Shown: positions 42,925 to 51,054 of the stretch, in pieces
Layout of the letters: each line of letters starts with the position of its first letter
Position numbering within the stretch: the first letter of the stretch is position 1
From: Candidatus Norongarragalinales archaeon
GTDB lineage: Archaea > Micrarchaeota > Micrarchaeia > Norongarragalinales > Norongarragalinaceae
Direction of reading: 5' to 3'
Assembly: GCA_038884755.1 (NCBI GenBank)
Contig: JAWABJ010000001.1
Location: 636,953-700,952, forward strand
Length of the DNA stretch: 64,000 bases
Translations under genes and position numbers: made by a program
Notes under the pieces: model-generated
Database searches by the model: none
What the model was told of the DNA's origin: nothing
What the model saw: only the letters and a program-made list of their open reading frames with translations

Positions 42925-43273
42925 GCTGTGCAGGTTTTCTCGAGGGGTAGTCTCACGATTAGAAACATCAAAGCTTTACAGCTCTGCTTCCAAACAATTG
43001 TGAGGTTATGGTCGTTAGTAACGCTCGGCTGAACACCTCGCTTGCGCTTGGTGCGTACACCTGCGTCCTATCAAACTCATCTGCTATGAGTGACCTAAGC
43101 CGCTTCGTTTCAGGATTGGCTTCGTCCTTAGCTAGGCAGCAGTTTTTCCAAGGTTTTTTTCCTACGGAAAAAAAGCTTATGCCTTCAGGACTTATCCTAA
43201 TGGCGCGTGGCTACCCTGCTTGCTTGCAAACAACAGGCGAACCAGAGGCGCCGGATCGATGTTCCTCTCGTAC

Positions 43274-43975
43274 TTATCGATCCTTCCCTTCAAGCGGCCA
43301 AACAATCCTAAAAGATGCAACCGAACTGTCTATGTCGCCTCTTCTAGAACGCTTAAGCAATTCAAAACGAAACACTTTATCCGGATGAGCCGAATCAAAA
43401 CAATCGTAAAACTTCAACACTTGCTCGCTCCCGTGAACCATCAACGCAAACATTTGCGTTTGGCTTCCTTTCTTAACGTACGGCCCGCAAACGCGTCCGC
43501 AGCGAACTCCGAATTCGGAAACGATTTCCTTTATTTCGCCCAGAACACCCTGGTTGGCTTGAGCCAAATAAACCCGAATGTCCTTTTCAGGAATGTTCAA
43601 AGTCGTTTTCTCGAAGGAATTAACGCTTCCCTCCGCATCGAAAAAACCCCGGACGTAAGCCGCCTTAAGTTCTCCAGAGCCTTTTGAAATCCACGTTGGG
43701 GTTAGCCAAGTGGATTGGTCTCCGTTGAATTCAGCGAACTTCGAAAGTTCTTGAAAAACTTTCTTGGAAGTAATGCTCAAACACCAAACGCCATGCCGCT
43801 CGTCGAAGTAAAAGCTAGCGTTCTTGCCGAAATTCCTTTCGAGAATTCCGGCCAAAAGCTCGAGCCATCGTTTGCTCTTTTGGTAAAACCCGATTCGATA
43901 AATGCCTTGTTCAGGAATGCTCGTGATGTTTCCATCACGCAAGGCTCCGATCAAGTAAGCGATTTCTTCATTCAC
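43274..43975 (-). CDS. double-motif LAGLIDADG homing endonuclease (GTG start assumed at 43975; last 19 codons run past the 3' splice site into exon 2)
   Basis: Motifs LIGALRDGN and GFFDAEGSV; ORF-track N-terminal 78 codons (43976-44209) are translated 23S exon/intron-5' sequence and rejected. Confidence 0.7.
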   Translation of the reverse strand: MNEEIAYLIGALRDGNITSIPEQGIYRIGFYQKSKRWLELLAGILERNFGKNASFYFDERHGVWCLSITSKKVFQELSKFAEFNGDQSTWLTPTWISKGSGELKAAYVRGFFDAEGSVNSFEKTTLNIPEKDIRVYLAQANQGVLGEIKEIVSEFGVRCGRVCGPYVKKGSQTQMFALMVHGSEQVLKFYDCFDSAHPDKVFRFELLKRSRRGDIDSSVASFRIVWPLEGKDR

Positions 43976-44070
43976 GATTAATCCGAAATCTTCCTCTGCT
44001 TTTAAATCTTGAGAGAGTGGCTTTCCAGTGCTTCCAGTGAATTGCCTATGATTGTGCGTTCTAAAAGAGG
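43331..44070 (-). mobile_element. archaeal (bulge-helix-bulge type) intron in 23S at the I-CreI-like site (E. coli ~2593), carrying a LAGLIDADG ORF
   Basis: Splits AACGUCGCGA|GACAGUUCGG; intron termini CCUCUUUUAGAACGC...GCGUUCUAGAAGAGG are complementary (long terminal helix typical of archaeal rRNA introns); no group I core elements. Confidence 0.7.
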
Positions 44071-44191
44071 TCGCGACGTTCTGAACCCAACTAACGTAGG
44101 TCTTTAATGGATGAACAACCCAACCCTTGGTGGCTCCTGCACCACCAGGATGACCTGAGCCGATAGCGATGTACCAAACCGCGGTGTCGAT

Positions 44192-44393
44192 TTGTCCTTT
44201 GCAGAACAATCTTTCCCGCCCCCTACGCGTTGAGCGTCAGAGTTCAAACCGGTCACTAACATCTTTTGCGAGAGATTACCTAAACCTAACCAGCATGGAT
44301 GCCAGTGTCGGTTTAAACGAAGACTGATCGCTCAAAACACGGGGTTGAAAAAGAAAGTTCCATTCGCCTTTCAAATGAAAGAAAGGGGAAAAA
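44192..44393 (-). mobile_element. ~200-nt insertion in 23S between GAGAGUUCAU and AUCGACACCGCGG (E. coli ~2500 site); ORF-less, type undetermined
   Basis: Flanking exon sequences align to conserved domain V; insert lacks group I R/S elements; contains CCUUUC...GAAAGG hairpin. Confidence 0.5.
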
Positions 44394-44517
44394 ATGAACT
44401 CTCAACCGCGACGAGCCTGTTACCCCCGGGGTAGCTTGTCTGTCAGAATGAGCCCTCATTAAAAGGGCATCATTGTTCGTTAAGCCCTGCTTTCGCACCT
44501 GCGACCCATAAAACAGA

Positions 44518-44555
44518 TTTTTCTTTACTTGATTTTTCTTTCGTAAAGAAAAATC
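44518..44555. repeat. hairpin-repeat insertion in 23S: UUUUUCUUUACUUGAUUUUUCUUUCGUAAAGAAAAAUC
   Basis: Near-identical (35/38) to copy in 16S at 49958-49997. Confidence 0.7.
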
Positions 44556-48490: not shown

Positions 48491-49060
48491 ACGACTTAAC
48501 CCTCCTCATGAAGATCTAGCTCGAATGCGACCGAAGTCGCAGCCTCACTAAAACCTCACTTGGATGGCTTGACGGGCGGTGTGTGCAAGGAGCGGGGACA
48601 TATTCACCGCGCGATGATGACACGCGATTACTAGGGATTCCAACTTCATGGGGGCGAGTTTCAGCCCCCAATCTGTACTGGAGTAGGGTTTAGGTGATTG
48701 CCTCCGCCTTTCGGCGTCGGAACACATTGTCCCTACTATTGTATGCCACGTGTGGCCCAGCAGATTCAGGCCATACGGACCTAGCGTCGCCTTCTCCTTC
48801 CTCCCACTTAACGCGGGCAGTCTCCACAGAGTGCCCTCCGAATTGCTTCGAAGGTAGCAACTGTGGACGAAGATCTCGCTCGTTGCACGACTTAACGTGA
48901 CACCTCACGGCACGAGCTGGCGCTGGCCATGCAACACTTCTCGGCTTGTTGGCTAAGATCTTTAGTCTGAGCTTCATACTGCCGTCTCTGCTGGTGAGTT
49001 TCCCGGCGTTGAGTCCAATTGAACCGCAGCATCCACCCCTTGTGGTGCTCCCCCGCCAAT

Positions 49061-49645
49061 TCAGGGGAATAACGCAATCATGTTGGAAAGTCTCTCAAAC
49101 TTTTCTGGATGAAAAGAATGAATTAACGAGTGAAATTTTTTCAAATTCTCTCGTCTTGTTATCCTGAACTGCCAAGCTTCACTCGTAAAAGTCAAGTTTG
49201 TTGGCCGGAATTCTTCGCTTAAGAAAAAATTTCTTAAGAATTCCAGAGGTTCTCTTCCTTTCTGGTCGAATGAAACACACGTTTGGGTTGAATGCTCAGG
49301 ATCTAAAGGCACTCCGCCTTCAGCATCGAAAAAACCGCCGGCATAACACCACAATTCTCGCGGTGTTGCATTGCGAACCGATTCGGGCGTGTTCCAAAAT
49401 TCCTGCGGACAAACGTATCCAGAAAGAGAAACTAACTCTGAAATTGTTTTCTTGCCGTTCAACCTCAAGAGATTATTTCGAAGCCTGCATGAGACTCCGA
49501 AATTCCTTTCGATTATTTCGGCAAGTTTTTCCAGCCAAGCCTCGGACTTTTGATAAATCCGCAATTCGTAATTTTTGGAATCGCGGACTTCGAAGCTGGC
49601 GTCACGGAATGCTCCCAAAAGATAGCACAATTCAGCGTTCATCAT
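49061..49645 (-). CDS. double-motif LAGLIDADG homing endonuclease; stop codon UGA straddles the 3' splice junction
   Basis: Motifs LLGAFRDAS and GGFFDAEGG; 194 aa. Confidence 0.75.
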   Translation of the reverse strand: MMNAELCYLLGAFRDASFEVRDSKNYELRIYQKSEAWLEKLAEIIERNFGVSCRLRNNLLRLNGKKTISELVSLSGYVCPQEFWNTPESVRNATPRELWCYAGGFFDAEGGVPLDPEHSTQTCVSFDQKGREPLEFLRNFFLSEEFRPTNLTFTSEAWQFRITRRENLKKFHSLIHSFHPEKFERLSNMIALFP

Positions 49646-49719
49646 TGGCTCGCACTGAAGCGCGCTTTAAATGTTTTTTGAGAGTAGCTTTCCAGTGTTA
49701 TTTGATTGCGCTATTCCTT
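49062..49719 (-). mobile_element. archaeal BHB-type intron in 16S (between AAACUUAAAGG and AAUUGGCGGGGG; E. coli ~919) carrying a LAGLIDADG ORF
   Basis: ~35-nt imperfect terminal inverted repeat (GGAAUAGCGCAAUCAAAUAACACUGGAAAGCUACUCUC / GAGAGACUUUCCAACAUGAUUGCGUUAUUCC); exon 1 ends in G (not U) and ORF fills intron, arguing against group I. Confidence 0.7.
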
Positions 49720-49957
49720 TCCTTTAAGTTTCAATCTTGCGATCGTACTCCCCAAGCGGCAGACTAAACGTTTTCACTACGGCACTGCAGCAACGCGAAG
49801 TCGCTGCAACGCCAAGTCTGCATCATTTACTGCACAGGACTACTCGGGTATCTAATCCGATTCGCTACCCTGGCCTTCGTTCCTCACCGTCAGACGTGTT
49901 TTGTCCAAGCGCTTTCGCCACCGATGGTCCTCTAAGGATTACAGGATTGTAAGCACA

Positions 49958-49997
49958 GTTTTTCTTTACTCAATTTTTCTTTCGTAAAGAAAAATTG
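49958..49997. repeat. hairpin-repeat insertion in 16S (within the ~720 region): UUUUUCUUUACUCAAUUUUUCUUUCGUAAAGAAAAAUUG
   Basis: Interrupts conserved GGGGUGAAAUCCUGUAAUCC context; near-identical to 23S copy. Confidence 0.7.
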
Positions 49998-51054
49998 TTT
50001 TACTCCTCCCCCTAAAGTACCCTTGGACTCCCCCACTCTCAAGCTCGGTAGTATTCCCTGCACGCCCATCCGTTGAGCGGATGGATTTCACAGGAAACTT
50101 GCCAAGCCGGCTACGGACGCTTTAAGCTCAATATTCGTGGATACCACTAGTTCTACCTGTGTTACCGCGGCGGCTGGCACAGGATTTACCCAGAACTTAT
50201 TCCACCGGCTATTCAAGCCGGTTAAAAGCCGACCTTTCGATCGGCACTCGGACTACCCCCATCACGCTTTCGCGCATTGTGGAATTTTCGCGCCTGCTGC
50301 ATCCCGTAGGACTCGGGCCCTTGTCTCAGTGCCCGTCTCGGGGCTCCTACTCCCATAGCCCCTACTGATTATAGGTTTGGTGGGCCGTTACCTCACCAAC
50401 AGCCTAATCAGCCGCAGTGCCATCTTACAGCAAACTTGCTCCAATTCGCTTTTTTTTCAACCGCCAACCGTTCCAGGTACGGCGGCCTATGGCGTGTTAC
50501 CCGCACTTTCGCGCGGTTATTCGCCTCTGTAAGGTAGGTTCACTACGTGTTACTGAGCCGTTTGCCGGGATTACAAGTGTAATCCCCAAACTTGCATGGC
50601 TTAGTCGTAATCCGATAGCAGTATCCTCCAGCAGGATCAACTGGTGTTGTCCTAACACCCGATTCGGGTGTTAGGACGGAGATCGCAAGAACTAACTTAT
50701 CTTGCGGAATGAGCGTCTTGCATAGAGTTATTTGCTCTCTTCTTCCCCTGCGTCGAACCCAAATGAGAATCGCTTGCCATCAGAGATGGAAGAACATAAT
50801 TCTTTGTTTGAGTGCCCATGATCGCTGTAGTAGTAAAAATAGCAACGCCAGTCATGGATTCACGCAGAGGCGAAAAACGCGATAGCAAGGCGTTTCTACG
50901 CTCTCAGATAAAGTCTTCTATGGCTTGCCGGGAACTACAGCATTAGAAAAAACACTCTTTCCGAAGAAAGAATGCCTTTATTAAATCGTCGAAAGGAGTT
51001 TAAAAAGCTTTTGAATCAACCGCGGGATGTAGCGCTTTGCAAGCGAAACAAATA

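Follow-up and report, generated by a model that had tools for sequence, protein, structure and literature searches.

Evidence for nine introns of two classes, group I and bulge-helix-bulge, in one rRNA operon of a Micrarchaeota archaeon

What interrupts the ribosomal RNA (rRNA) genes of this archaeon, how many times, and how would the interruptions be removed from the transcript? The window analysed here is a stretch of 64,000 nucleotides (nt) from Candidatus Norongarragalinales archaeon (assembly GCA_038884755.1, contig JAWABJ010000001.1). The thermosome encoded in the window is 100% identical to an NCBI protein named 'Candidatus Norongarragalinales archaeon', with Micrarchaeota as the next matches, which places the host in Micrarchaeota, a phylum of DPANN archaea. 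The minus strand of the window carries an archaeal small subunit (SSU)-tRNAAla(UGC)-large subunit (LSU) operon at about 50647..42995, as located by Rfam and ARAGORN. An earlier note on this DNA, made from the letters alone, had described a 16S-tRNAAla-23S operon with the same span, in agreement with Rfam, ARAGORN and the alignment to E. coli, and had proposed that insertions of two mechanistic classes share it, which also held: two insertions are of group I (Rfam match, U.G pair, terminal G) and seven have bulge-helix-bulge (BHB) geometry. Its count of five insertions was too low, as those in the SSU 690 loop and at LSU ~1617, ~2360 and ~2754 (47-64 nt) had been missed. We find nine, three in the SSU and six in the LSU, which total 2751 nt and make up 38% of the two rRNA genes (2751/7142 nt); their removal in silico leaves an SSU of 1488 nt and an LSU of about 2.9 kb. 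It is highly probable that these are nine introns of two classes, two of group I and seven of BHB type, within the 16S and 23S genes of a single Micrarchaeota operon.

The junctions were set by alignment to E. coli rrsH and rrlH, by string coordinates and by comparison with uninterrupted homologues among about 35 archaeal rRNA loci. Introns are named by subunit and E. coli position (S1498, L1923), and loci of relatives by a three-digit handle (L084), where loci L084-L093 are the contigs of homologues of the L2597 endonuclease. Such alignment of the exons to references, proposed in the earlier note, confirmed its SSU 919 site and shifted its other four. A MAFFT comparison with intron-poor LSU genes of Micrarchaeota and with other SSU genes gave no additional insertion of 21 nt or longer; five blocks of 12-20 nt were left over, four of which also occur in L090 and L084. 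Rfam drew both genes far longer than its models (SSU 50647..48443, LSU 47722..44036) and mis-placed the 3' ends of both, that of the LSU at 44036 owing to the L2597 intron. By alignment to E. coli, the 16S ends with GATCACCTCC (48243-48234) and the 23S at about 42995.

S1498 and L1923 are related group I ribozyme-type introns. This class had been assigned to both in the earlier note, at sites S1506 and L1917; the class stands on the Rfam matches, the U.G pairs and the terminal G, and the sites move to SSU/1498 and LSU/1923. For S1498 the whole Rfam model RF00028 was matched (48500..48284) with 51.8 bits, above the gathering score of 50, and an E value of 1e-12 in a local search. The exon ends with U1498, and P1 is formed by GUCGU^AA and UUGCGAC (the caret marks a splice site) with a U.G pair at the 5' splice site. 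The intron ends with G (...CUACAUG^AACAAGG), its core holds UCAGAGACUACACG and GAUAUAGUCC, with the P3/P7 pseudoknot resting on the Rfam alignment, and the junction is uninterrupted in eight other rRNA genes. L1923 has a P1 of GACUCU and GGGAGUC with a U.G pair, a terminal G (...AAAGUUG^CUUAAGG) and the core UCAGAGACUA...GAUAUAGUCC, which is common to both introns. BHB geometry was seen in neither, as the central helix scored 2/4 without a flanking helix.

The Rfam search for group I introns suggested in the earlier note thus placed S1498 above the gathering threshold, but L1923 below it. L1923 scored 27.2 bits with Intron_gpI (E 8e-5 to 9e-4; match 45270..44996, the P7-P9 half), and this shortfall counts against its assignment. 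The score is low because an open reading frame (ORF) splits the core, so that only the P7-P9 half aligns well. An Rfam scan of four loci likewise returned no group I match above the gathering score, so that the general Rfam model is weak on ORF-containing introns. The assignment of L1923 was supported by covariation, for which the anchored P1, P3 and P7 segments of 18 distinct introns were aligned without gaps. Standard pairs filled 99.4% of the cells, as compared to at most 47% when the 3' partners were slid by 1-3 columns. Both sides had changed in 10 of the 18 pairs (5/6 in P3 and 2/5 in P7), and P3 and P7 were 100% paired. The splice-site U.G pair was present in 18/18 homologues and the terminal G in all 24 LSU/1923 homologues that were extracted. 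P1 tracks the sequence of the host exon (gactct/GGGAGTC, gaccct/GGGGGTC, gaccgt/GGCGGTC, gacgat/GGTTGTC) and hence behaves as a guide sequence. From P1, the P3/P7 core and the terminal G, both S1498 and L1923 would be self-splicing introns, removed by guanosine-initiated transesterification.

The remaining seven insertions were scored for BHB geometry. In this scoring, the last two nucleotides of exon and intron stay unpaired, and the four nucleotides that precede them in the exon pair with the four that precede them in the intron (helix H), between two 3-nt bulges that are each cut after the second nucleotide, and only registers giving the same spliced product were allowed. H has 4 base pairs (bp) in the required register at six of the seven insertions and 3/4 bp at the seventh, S919, as compared to a rate of 2.3% for a 4/4 helix at position pairs drawn at random from the operon. 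Set against the 2/4 of the group I introns, these scores separate the two intron classes cleanly. Two of the seven are the ORF-filled BHB introns of the earlier note, for which the S919 site was right, but the one placed at L2593 lies after G2597 in the tetraloop of helix 93 (H93). The 200-nt ORF-less insertion it had put near L2500 is also present, with 202 nt, in the apical loop of H89 after U2477.

Relatives with an empty site carry exactly the predicted spliced product at the 690 loop, ~1617, ~2360, ~2754, S919, S1498 and L2597. At the 690 loop, where the Rfam alignment has 52 extra nt, other archaea and L084 have GGAGT-AAAA-TCCTG; here an alternative register, GAGU/GCUU, is also 4/4, with 3 bp in the inner flanking helix h'. 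The S919 junction is uninterrupted in seven other archaeal SSU genes. At ~1617 the empty site ACCAGTACAGGTGG is found in L090, L005, L019 and L026, and L084 has a 44-nt variant of the insertion. At ~2360 exactly 19 nt separate the anchors in eight other archaea, as compared to 66 in the window; L085 has the empty site TTAACAAAATG, and L084 and L086, the flanks of which are identical to those of L085, carry the intron. The ~2754 intron is absent from L084-L087, L088, L019, L005 and L026, where GGCAT^CTAAG is contiguous, and the site holds 65 nt in L090 and 42 nt of different sequence in L092. L2597 is uninterrupted in thirteen homologues (CGTCG-(C/T)GA-GACAG), and its homologue in L090 has GUUG in the exon and CAAC in the intron, a compensatory double change from GUCG/CGAC.

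Several points weigh against the BHB reading. The H helix of S919 includes an A.G mismatch. The outer exon-exon helix h is weak at all seven sites (0-3 bp), and h', which has 3-15 bp at six sites, has 0 bp at the 690 loop. In addition, excision and ligation at all nine introns, the enzyme used and the mobility of the ORF-less introns are deduced from sequence. Since h is short everywhere, the motifs would be of the relaxed HBh' kind and would need a broad-specificity endonuclease. The epsilon2 EndA of ARMAN-2 (Micrarchaeum), the only characterised example from Micrarchaeota, cleaves strict as well as relaxed BHB motifs (PMC3239211). At the seven BHB introns, the archaeal splicing endonuclease EndA would make the cuts and RtcB ligase would join the exons, and the tRNA genes of the window have introns, which implies that the splicing pathway is present.

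Could the ORF-less insertions in the LSU (~1617, ~2360, ~2754 and L2477) be retained expansion segments instead, or intervening sequences that are excised without religation to leave a fragmented rRNA? Such an origin would fit their position at helix tips and the presence of a member of the sequence family downstream of tRNA-Ala, in a transcribed spacer that requires no splicing. It would also fit L2477, an ORF-less element that has 194-214 nt in L084-L093, every close relative sampled, and this also where the LSU identity is only about 70-75%. However, the 4-bp helix and the 3-nt bulges occur in exact register at all of them, and L085 is set apart from the near-identical L084 and L086 by an insertion that is precisely present in one case and absent in the other, as is typical of mobile introns and not of structural segments of rRNA. 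The same family also interrupts the T arm of a tRNA-Pro, where removal is obligatory, and another copy lies within the universally conserved 690 loop of 16S. The mini-insertions do not behave as expansion segments, and we regard this alternative as unlikely for the four insertions taken together.

The comparison is weaker for L2477, as it is found in all the close relatives sampled and has an alternative fold. In an RNAalifold consensus of five homologues, its 3' end folds into a separate hairpin, in which the partner of H(b), the intron strand of H, is a GUUC-like stretch inside the intron; H89 is closed below a three-way structure, and no BHB was returned. This fold, which is also expected of a retained expansion segment, argues against a BHB intron at L2477. 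On the other side, H(b) is GAAU in some relatives and GGAC in others, and both pair with GUUC, so that pairing with the exon is maintained. L2477 is probably a BHB intron, as judged from this pairing and its register. A content of C/D-box small RNA was also considered for L2477 and rejected, as no C box was visible by eye.

A different identity for L2477 and L2597 was suggested by the group I introns of subtype IA3, which are known in archaea at LSU/2500 and LSU/2593, i.e. nearby in the same 23S domain, and in Micrarchaeota; the two could be degenerate members of this subtype. The general Rfam model, having given no significant archaeal matches in a published 6.7-Gb search, may be insensitive to IA3 introns. 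But the sites are 2477 and 2597, and neither insertion has a terminal G: L2597 has G at -1 and ends with U, and L2477 ends with A. Neither gave an Rfam group I match even at E<=10 (nor had L2477 a match to any Rfam family at this cut-off), both have BHB motifs, with the compensatory change at L2597, and the L2597 endonuclease belongs to LAGLIDADG_3, the Pfam family found in the S919 BHB intron. An IA3 identity was rejected on the terminal nucleotides, the Rfam result and the BHB motifs, and we give it next to no probability.

The earlier note had placed ORFs in BHB-type introns only, but a LAGLIDADG_1 gene for 176 amino acids is also carried by the group I intron L1923. It lies in the P6 loop, between CUGU and ACAG, and its final ~13 codons are at the same time the P6'-P7-P3'-P8 core of the ribozyme; the C-terminal GSSETxRxTP is conserved in this endonuclease family because its coding sequence overlaps UCAGAGACUAUACGCC. 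The translation has the motif GFADAEG, and relatives of solved structure include the I-OnuI family, I-CeuI and chain 3e54 ('rRNA intron-encoded endonuclease'). We found 133 homologues, and a profile scan of species-representative genomes gave 80 loci in many archaeal phyla and in bacteria, the best at 60%. The same gene sits in an intron exactly after U1923 in about 24 archaeal genomes, and the family also occurs in bacteria of the Candidate Phyla Radiation (CPR) and others. Through this single-motif endonuclease the L1923 copy may spread at the DNA level. The S919 endonuclease has the motifs LCYLLGAFRD and GGFFDAEGG, and no relative of solved structure was found for it in a sequence search of the PDB. 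The L2597 endonuclease, with the motifs IGALRDG and FFDAEGS, gave a weak PDB match (E 1e-4) to 2dch, a 'putative homing endonuclease', and has only 14 homologues; all three of these that have a source name are labelled Micrarchaeota. All three ORFs of the operon are intact and encode LAGLIDADG domains with the conserved acidic residue, from which cleavage activity is predicted.

The reading frame of L2597 continues for 58 nt beyond the 3' splice site into the 23S exon (43274-43331). Seven of its homologues have 231-233 amino acids (aa), matching the ~234-aa ORF of the window, so the exon-encoded tail seems to be conserved. This implies either translation from the unspliced precursor or a dispensable tail.

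Close relatives differ in which introns they carry. L084, the SSU of which is 98% identical to that of the window, is without the 690-loop mini-intron and without S919, S1498, L1923 and L2754; it has the ~2360 mini-intron, the L1617 variant, L2477 and L2597, and in addition a 680-nt endonuclease-containing intron after A2451 and two insertions of about 110 nt in the SSU. Thus, strains with 98% identical 16S differ at eight or more intron positions, and gain and loss of introns would be fast. L083 is 93% identical to the window over 1.47 kb across L1923 and has a mini-intron of the same family at ~1609, eight nt from the L1617 site of the window. L082, a Logan contig with an L1923 endonuclease 79% identical to that of the window, has one at a third LSU site, ~1780, together with several other insertions.

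These data also bear on another reading, in which the operon would be a chimera made in assembly or a pseudogene copy in decay. This is a concern because nine insertions are an extreme number for one operon, mis-assembly is frequent in rRNA regions and the DNA evidently comes from a metagenome-assembled genome. However, the same introns and sites recur in independent assemblies from other samples (L083 and L084-L087): L084-L087 all have L2477 and L2597, and L084 and L086 also have ~2360. The presence and absence of introns among close strains is the pattern expected of mobile introns and argues against an artefact of assembly. Once the insertions are taken out, the exons have full length, align with the archaeal models from one end to the other and retain the universally conserved sequences, and the three endonuclease ORFs are not disrupted. 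A chimeric or decaying operon is hence very improbable.

L082, L084-L086, L088 and L092 have many further insertions for which the window shows an empty site. Relatives have insertions of 47, 106, 118 or 680 nt after A2451, in the peptidyl transferase centre; the BHB test at the assumed A2451 junction fails, with an H of 2/4. Other insertion sites are SSU ~932 (60-112 nt), SSU ~953 and LSU ~1780, ~2570 and 2584, and large endonuclease-containing introns occur at LSU ~1609/1610.

The four mini-introns have a common layout, in which a pyrimidine-rich arm is followed by a short loop, a complementary purine-rich arm, a linker of about 5 nt and a second purine-rich arm. The tail after the second purine arm is site-specific, supplies H(b) and is complementary to the upstream exon end of its own site. 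Similarity among copies was measured by pairwise alignment with shuffles, a covariance model having been dropped as arms of different length misalign, and further copies were sought by a relaxed pattern search across the whole window. In minimum-energy folds the first arm pairs with the distal purine arm, forming the h' helix of the BHB, in 7 of the 10 copies folded. Between the SSU-690 and LSU-2360 copies the base of the hairpin changes from CAA...UUG to UGA...UCA, which is compensatory. A strict 35-nt pattern of the mini-intron gave no match in a scan of metagenomes of the Joint Genome Institute (JGI).

Two tRNA genes of the window carry the same kind of element. Without its 59-nt intron, the tRNA-Pro becomes a canonical 73-nt tRNA that is recognised by ARAGORN. 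The BHB of this intron has an H of 3/4, an h' of 15 bp and an h of 3 bp, and its sequence is 72-83% identical to the rRNA and spacer copies (z 4.1-9.0 against shuffles). As a tRNA interrupted in the T arm must be spliced, this copy lends independent support to the rRNA copies being substrates of the same pathway. The intron of tRNA-Glu(UUC) holds the same T-rich hairpin and repeated purine arm, and ARAGORN reported no tRNA on the unspliced sequence.

The spacer contains, right after tRNA-Ala, a mini-intron-like element, CUUUCUUUCUUUUUGCGAAAGAAAGAAA...AGUAAAGAAAGAAAAG (~47920-47976, minus strand), that is kept at this place in L084 and L091; a source copy, a processing signal and a T-rich terminator-like hairpin are all possible readings of it. 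At ~19885-20235 on the plus strand an apparent single tRNA gene extends over about 350 nt, with the 5' half GGGCCUAUAGCUCAGCCUGGACAGAGC, the anticodon loop CUUCUAA and the 3' end AAAUCCCCCUAGGCCCGC, and contains at least two long insertions, in which the hairpin element is present three to four times. The RNase P RNA gene (33562-33876, minus strand; Rfam 104.8 bits) measures 315 nt as compared to a 288-nt model and has 53 nt where the model has 10, with a T-rich/A-rich hairpin of the same type at 33780-33798; this stretch may be a mini-intron or a lineage-specific helix. A 90-nt tRNA at 29509-29598 (plus strand) was called Glu(CUC) by ARAGORN; its anticodon loop is CUCAUAA (CAU, Met or Ile2), followed by an intervening sequence of about 15 nt, and the Glu(CUC) identity is doubtful.

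Taken together, the copies raise the possibility, which we put forward tentatively and at somewhat less than even chances, of one family of ORF-less BHB mini-introns of about 45-65 nt that moves between classes of stable-RNA genes and inserts under guidance by, or selection for, pairing with the target. Its copies would lie at tRNA-Pro 53/54, at tRNA-Glu 37/38, in both rRNA genes, where they occupy several sites that vary from strain to strain, in the spacer and possibly in the RNase P RNA. As the 3' tail of each copy can pair with the end of its own upstream exon, the 4-bp BHB helix would form anew at each site, and a helix rebuilt at every site points to insertion that is guided by, or selected for, target pairing. 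Candidate routes are reverse splicing followed by reverse transcription, or target-primed insertion into DNA. A limited literature search found no report of one BHB intron family common to tRNA and rRNA genes. If confirmed, the family would offer a tractable case for how BHB introns without an endonuclease gene spread.

Table 1. Positions of the rRNA operon, its predicted introns and endonuclease genes, and two intron-containing tRNA genes in the window (H and h', helices of the BHB motif; caret, cut site)
Feature	Position	Strand	Length	Evidence and remarks
16S rRNA gene	48234..50647	-		Rfam SSU_rRNA_archaea 1262 bits; exons 50647-49998, 49946-49719, 49059-48491, 48274-48234
SSU 690 loop (H23) mini-intron	49947..49997	-	51 nt	H GUAA/UUAC 4/4; bulges AA^C, AA^U; h' 0 bp
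SSU/919 BHB intron	49060..49718	-	659 nt	H AAGG/CCUG 3/4; bulges AA^A, AA^U; h' 15 bp
S919 endonuclease	49061..49645	-	194 aa	Pfam LAGLIDADG_3 E 1.8e-9; two LAGLIDADG motifs
SSU/1498 group I intron	48275..48490	-	216 nt	Rfam Intron_gpI; no ORF
tRNA-Ala(UGC), 16S-23S spacer	47981..48053	-		ARAGORN; Rfam tRNA 74.4 bits
23S rRNA gene	42995..47722	-		Rfam LSU_rRNA_archaea 1958 bits; 3' end approximate
23S exons	47722-46066, 46001-45710, 44984-44557, 44509-44394, 44191-44072, 43331-43179, 43131-~42995	-		
LSU ~1617 mini-intron	46002..46065	-	64 nt	H CAGU/ACUG 4/4; bulges AC^A, AA^A; h' 4 bp
LSU/1923 group I intron	44985..45709	-	725 nt	Rfam Intron_gpI and covariation
L1923 endonuclease	45037..45567	-	176 aa	Pfam LAGLIDADG_1 E 3.8e-20; one LAGLIDADG motif; P6 loop
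LSU ~2360 mini-intron	44510..44556	-	47 nt	Hairpin loop; H AACA/UGUU 4/4; bulges AA^U, UU^A; h' 13 bp
LSU/2477 insertion	44192..44393	-	202 nt	H89 apical loop, after U2477; no ORF; H GUUC/GGAC 4/4; bulges AU^U, AA^A; h' 3 bp
LSU/2597 BHB intron	43332..44071	-	740 nt	H93 tetraloop, after G2597; H GUCG/CGAC 4/4; bulges CG^A, AU^A; h' 15 bp
L2597 endonuclease	43274..43978	-	~234 aa	Pfam LAGLIDADG_3 E 1.3e-13; two LAGLIDADG motifs
LSU ~2754 mini-intron	43132..43178	-	47 nt	H AGGC/GCCU 4/4; bulges AU^A, AG^C; h' 3 bp
tRNA-Pro(UGG)	19248..19379	-		Unannotated; missed by ARAGORN; 59-nt intron 19268..19326, between 53/54, T arm
tRNA-Glu(UUC)	27491..27631	-	141 nt	Rfam 46.3 bits; 66-nt intron at 37/38, about 27526-27591

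The 23S flanks, 42925-43020 and 47715-47840 on the minus strand, pair as a long processing stem of 13 bp (GCUGUGCAGGUUU/AAACCUGCACAGC), then UCGAGG/CCUCGA and then GUAGU/ACUAC. A canonical BHB was not seen in this stem, and a hairpin of about 40 nt lies between the E. coli-like 23S 3' end and the stem. Directly downstream of the 23S (41965-42924, minus strand) is a gene for a protein of 319 aa that has a DGQHR motif and matches DndB, a protein associated with DNA-sulfur modification, weakly and below the Pfam threshold. In relatives the same position is occupied by other genes, including those for an MmeI-type restriction-modification enzyme and a Toll/interleukin-1 receptor (TIR)-domain protein, and from this variation the operon adjoins a variable defence region. 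Other products encoded in the window, by Pfam, are the thermosome, the alanyl- and methionyl-tRNA synthetases (AlaRS, MetRS) and carbamoyl phosphate synthetase (CPSase).

Within one transcript, the group I and BHB systems can here be compared side by side. The introns also break standard annotation, with wrong 3' ends for both rRNA genes in Rfam and two intron-containing tRNAs missed by ARAGORN, and they split conserved stretches such as those to which universal primers are designed.

The earlier note considered the coexistence of ribozyme-type and endonuclease-spliced introns in one archaeal operon unusual. It was, however, already published in 2018, for the same phylum and the same group I sites. 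Nawrocki, Jones and Eddy listed 39 group I introns of archaea, of which Micrarchaeota account for 11, at LSU/1923, 1931, 2500 and 2593 and at SSU/1498, and stated that a single gene can hold group I as well as BHB introns (PMC6125680). The introns described here resemble the archaeal IB4 introns of that study in phylum, in both sites, in the LAGLIDADG genes of some copies and in co-occurrence with BHB introns; the window sites match the published IB4 sites, and the subtype in the window is read from the site. The Micrarchaeota contig MNVH01000001.1 of the same study has IB4.18 (LSU/1923), IB4.19 (SSU/1498) and IA3.11 (LSU/2593) (PMC6125680), whereas the operon of the window has no IA3 intron at LSU/2593 but one of BHB type four nt away. 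As far as could be told, the genome of the window is not among the published group I examples, and rRNA introns are not mentioned in the genome papers on Norongarragalinales and Micrarchaeota that we consulted. What is known, then, is that both intron classes can occupy a single archaeal rRNA gene, at the two group I sites found here and within Micrarchaeota. This operon, the count of nine introns and the BHB sites in H89, H93 and small loops appear undescribed, and the finding adds an unusually crowded case to the mixed ribozyme- and endonuclease-spliced archaeal rRNA genes described in 2018.

Locus 919 is a known intron site of archaeal 16S that disrupts universal primers (Jay and Inskeep 2015; PMC4496867). 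Crenarchaeal 16S genes have BHB introns with LAGLIDADG genes at 919, as well as small (<~50 nt) BHB hairpin introns (PMC4496867). S919 has the same site, the long helix of intron termini, the junction BHB and the double-motif endonuclease in common with these, and ORF-less mini-introns are a category of both. The hosts differ, being Thermoproteales, Desulfurococcales and Aigarchaeota in that study and a DPANN archaeon here. The SSU 690 loop, LSU ~1617, ~2360, 2477, 2597 and ~2754 are not among its 16S loci, and the mini-introns of the window form one sequence family.

The rRNA insertions of CPR bacteria (Tsurumaki et al. 2024; PMC11270868) are similar in being many per rRNA gene, in an ultrasmall lineage with reduced genomes, and the L1923 endonuclease family occurs in CPR and other bacteria as well. 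However, the BHB/EndA pathway is absent from bacteria, and their insertions outside group I are of group II or are excised without the archaeal mechanism.

The mini-introns are best compared with the introns of archaeal tRNA genes. In Thermoproteales, similar short introns were transposed among tRNA genes, according to the 2010 work as summarised in PMC4090602, and ARMAN-2 has intron-rich tRNA genes with a tRNA-Pro intron at 53/54 (PMC3239211). The window is like these, as far as those accounts describe them, in having near-identical short BHB introns at different gene positions, relaxed BHB motifs and an intron at tRNA-Pro 53/54; relative to the same accounts, it differs in that its copies lie also in both rRNA genes and in the spacer. 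In the window the ORF-less mini-introns look like a single mobile family that is common to tRNA genes as well, and if this is true, the 'tRNA intron transposition' of Thermoproteales would be extended to rRNA and to DPANN archaea.

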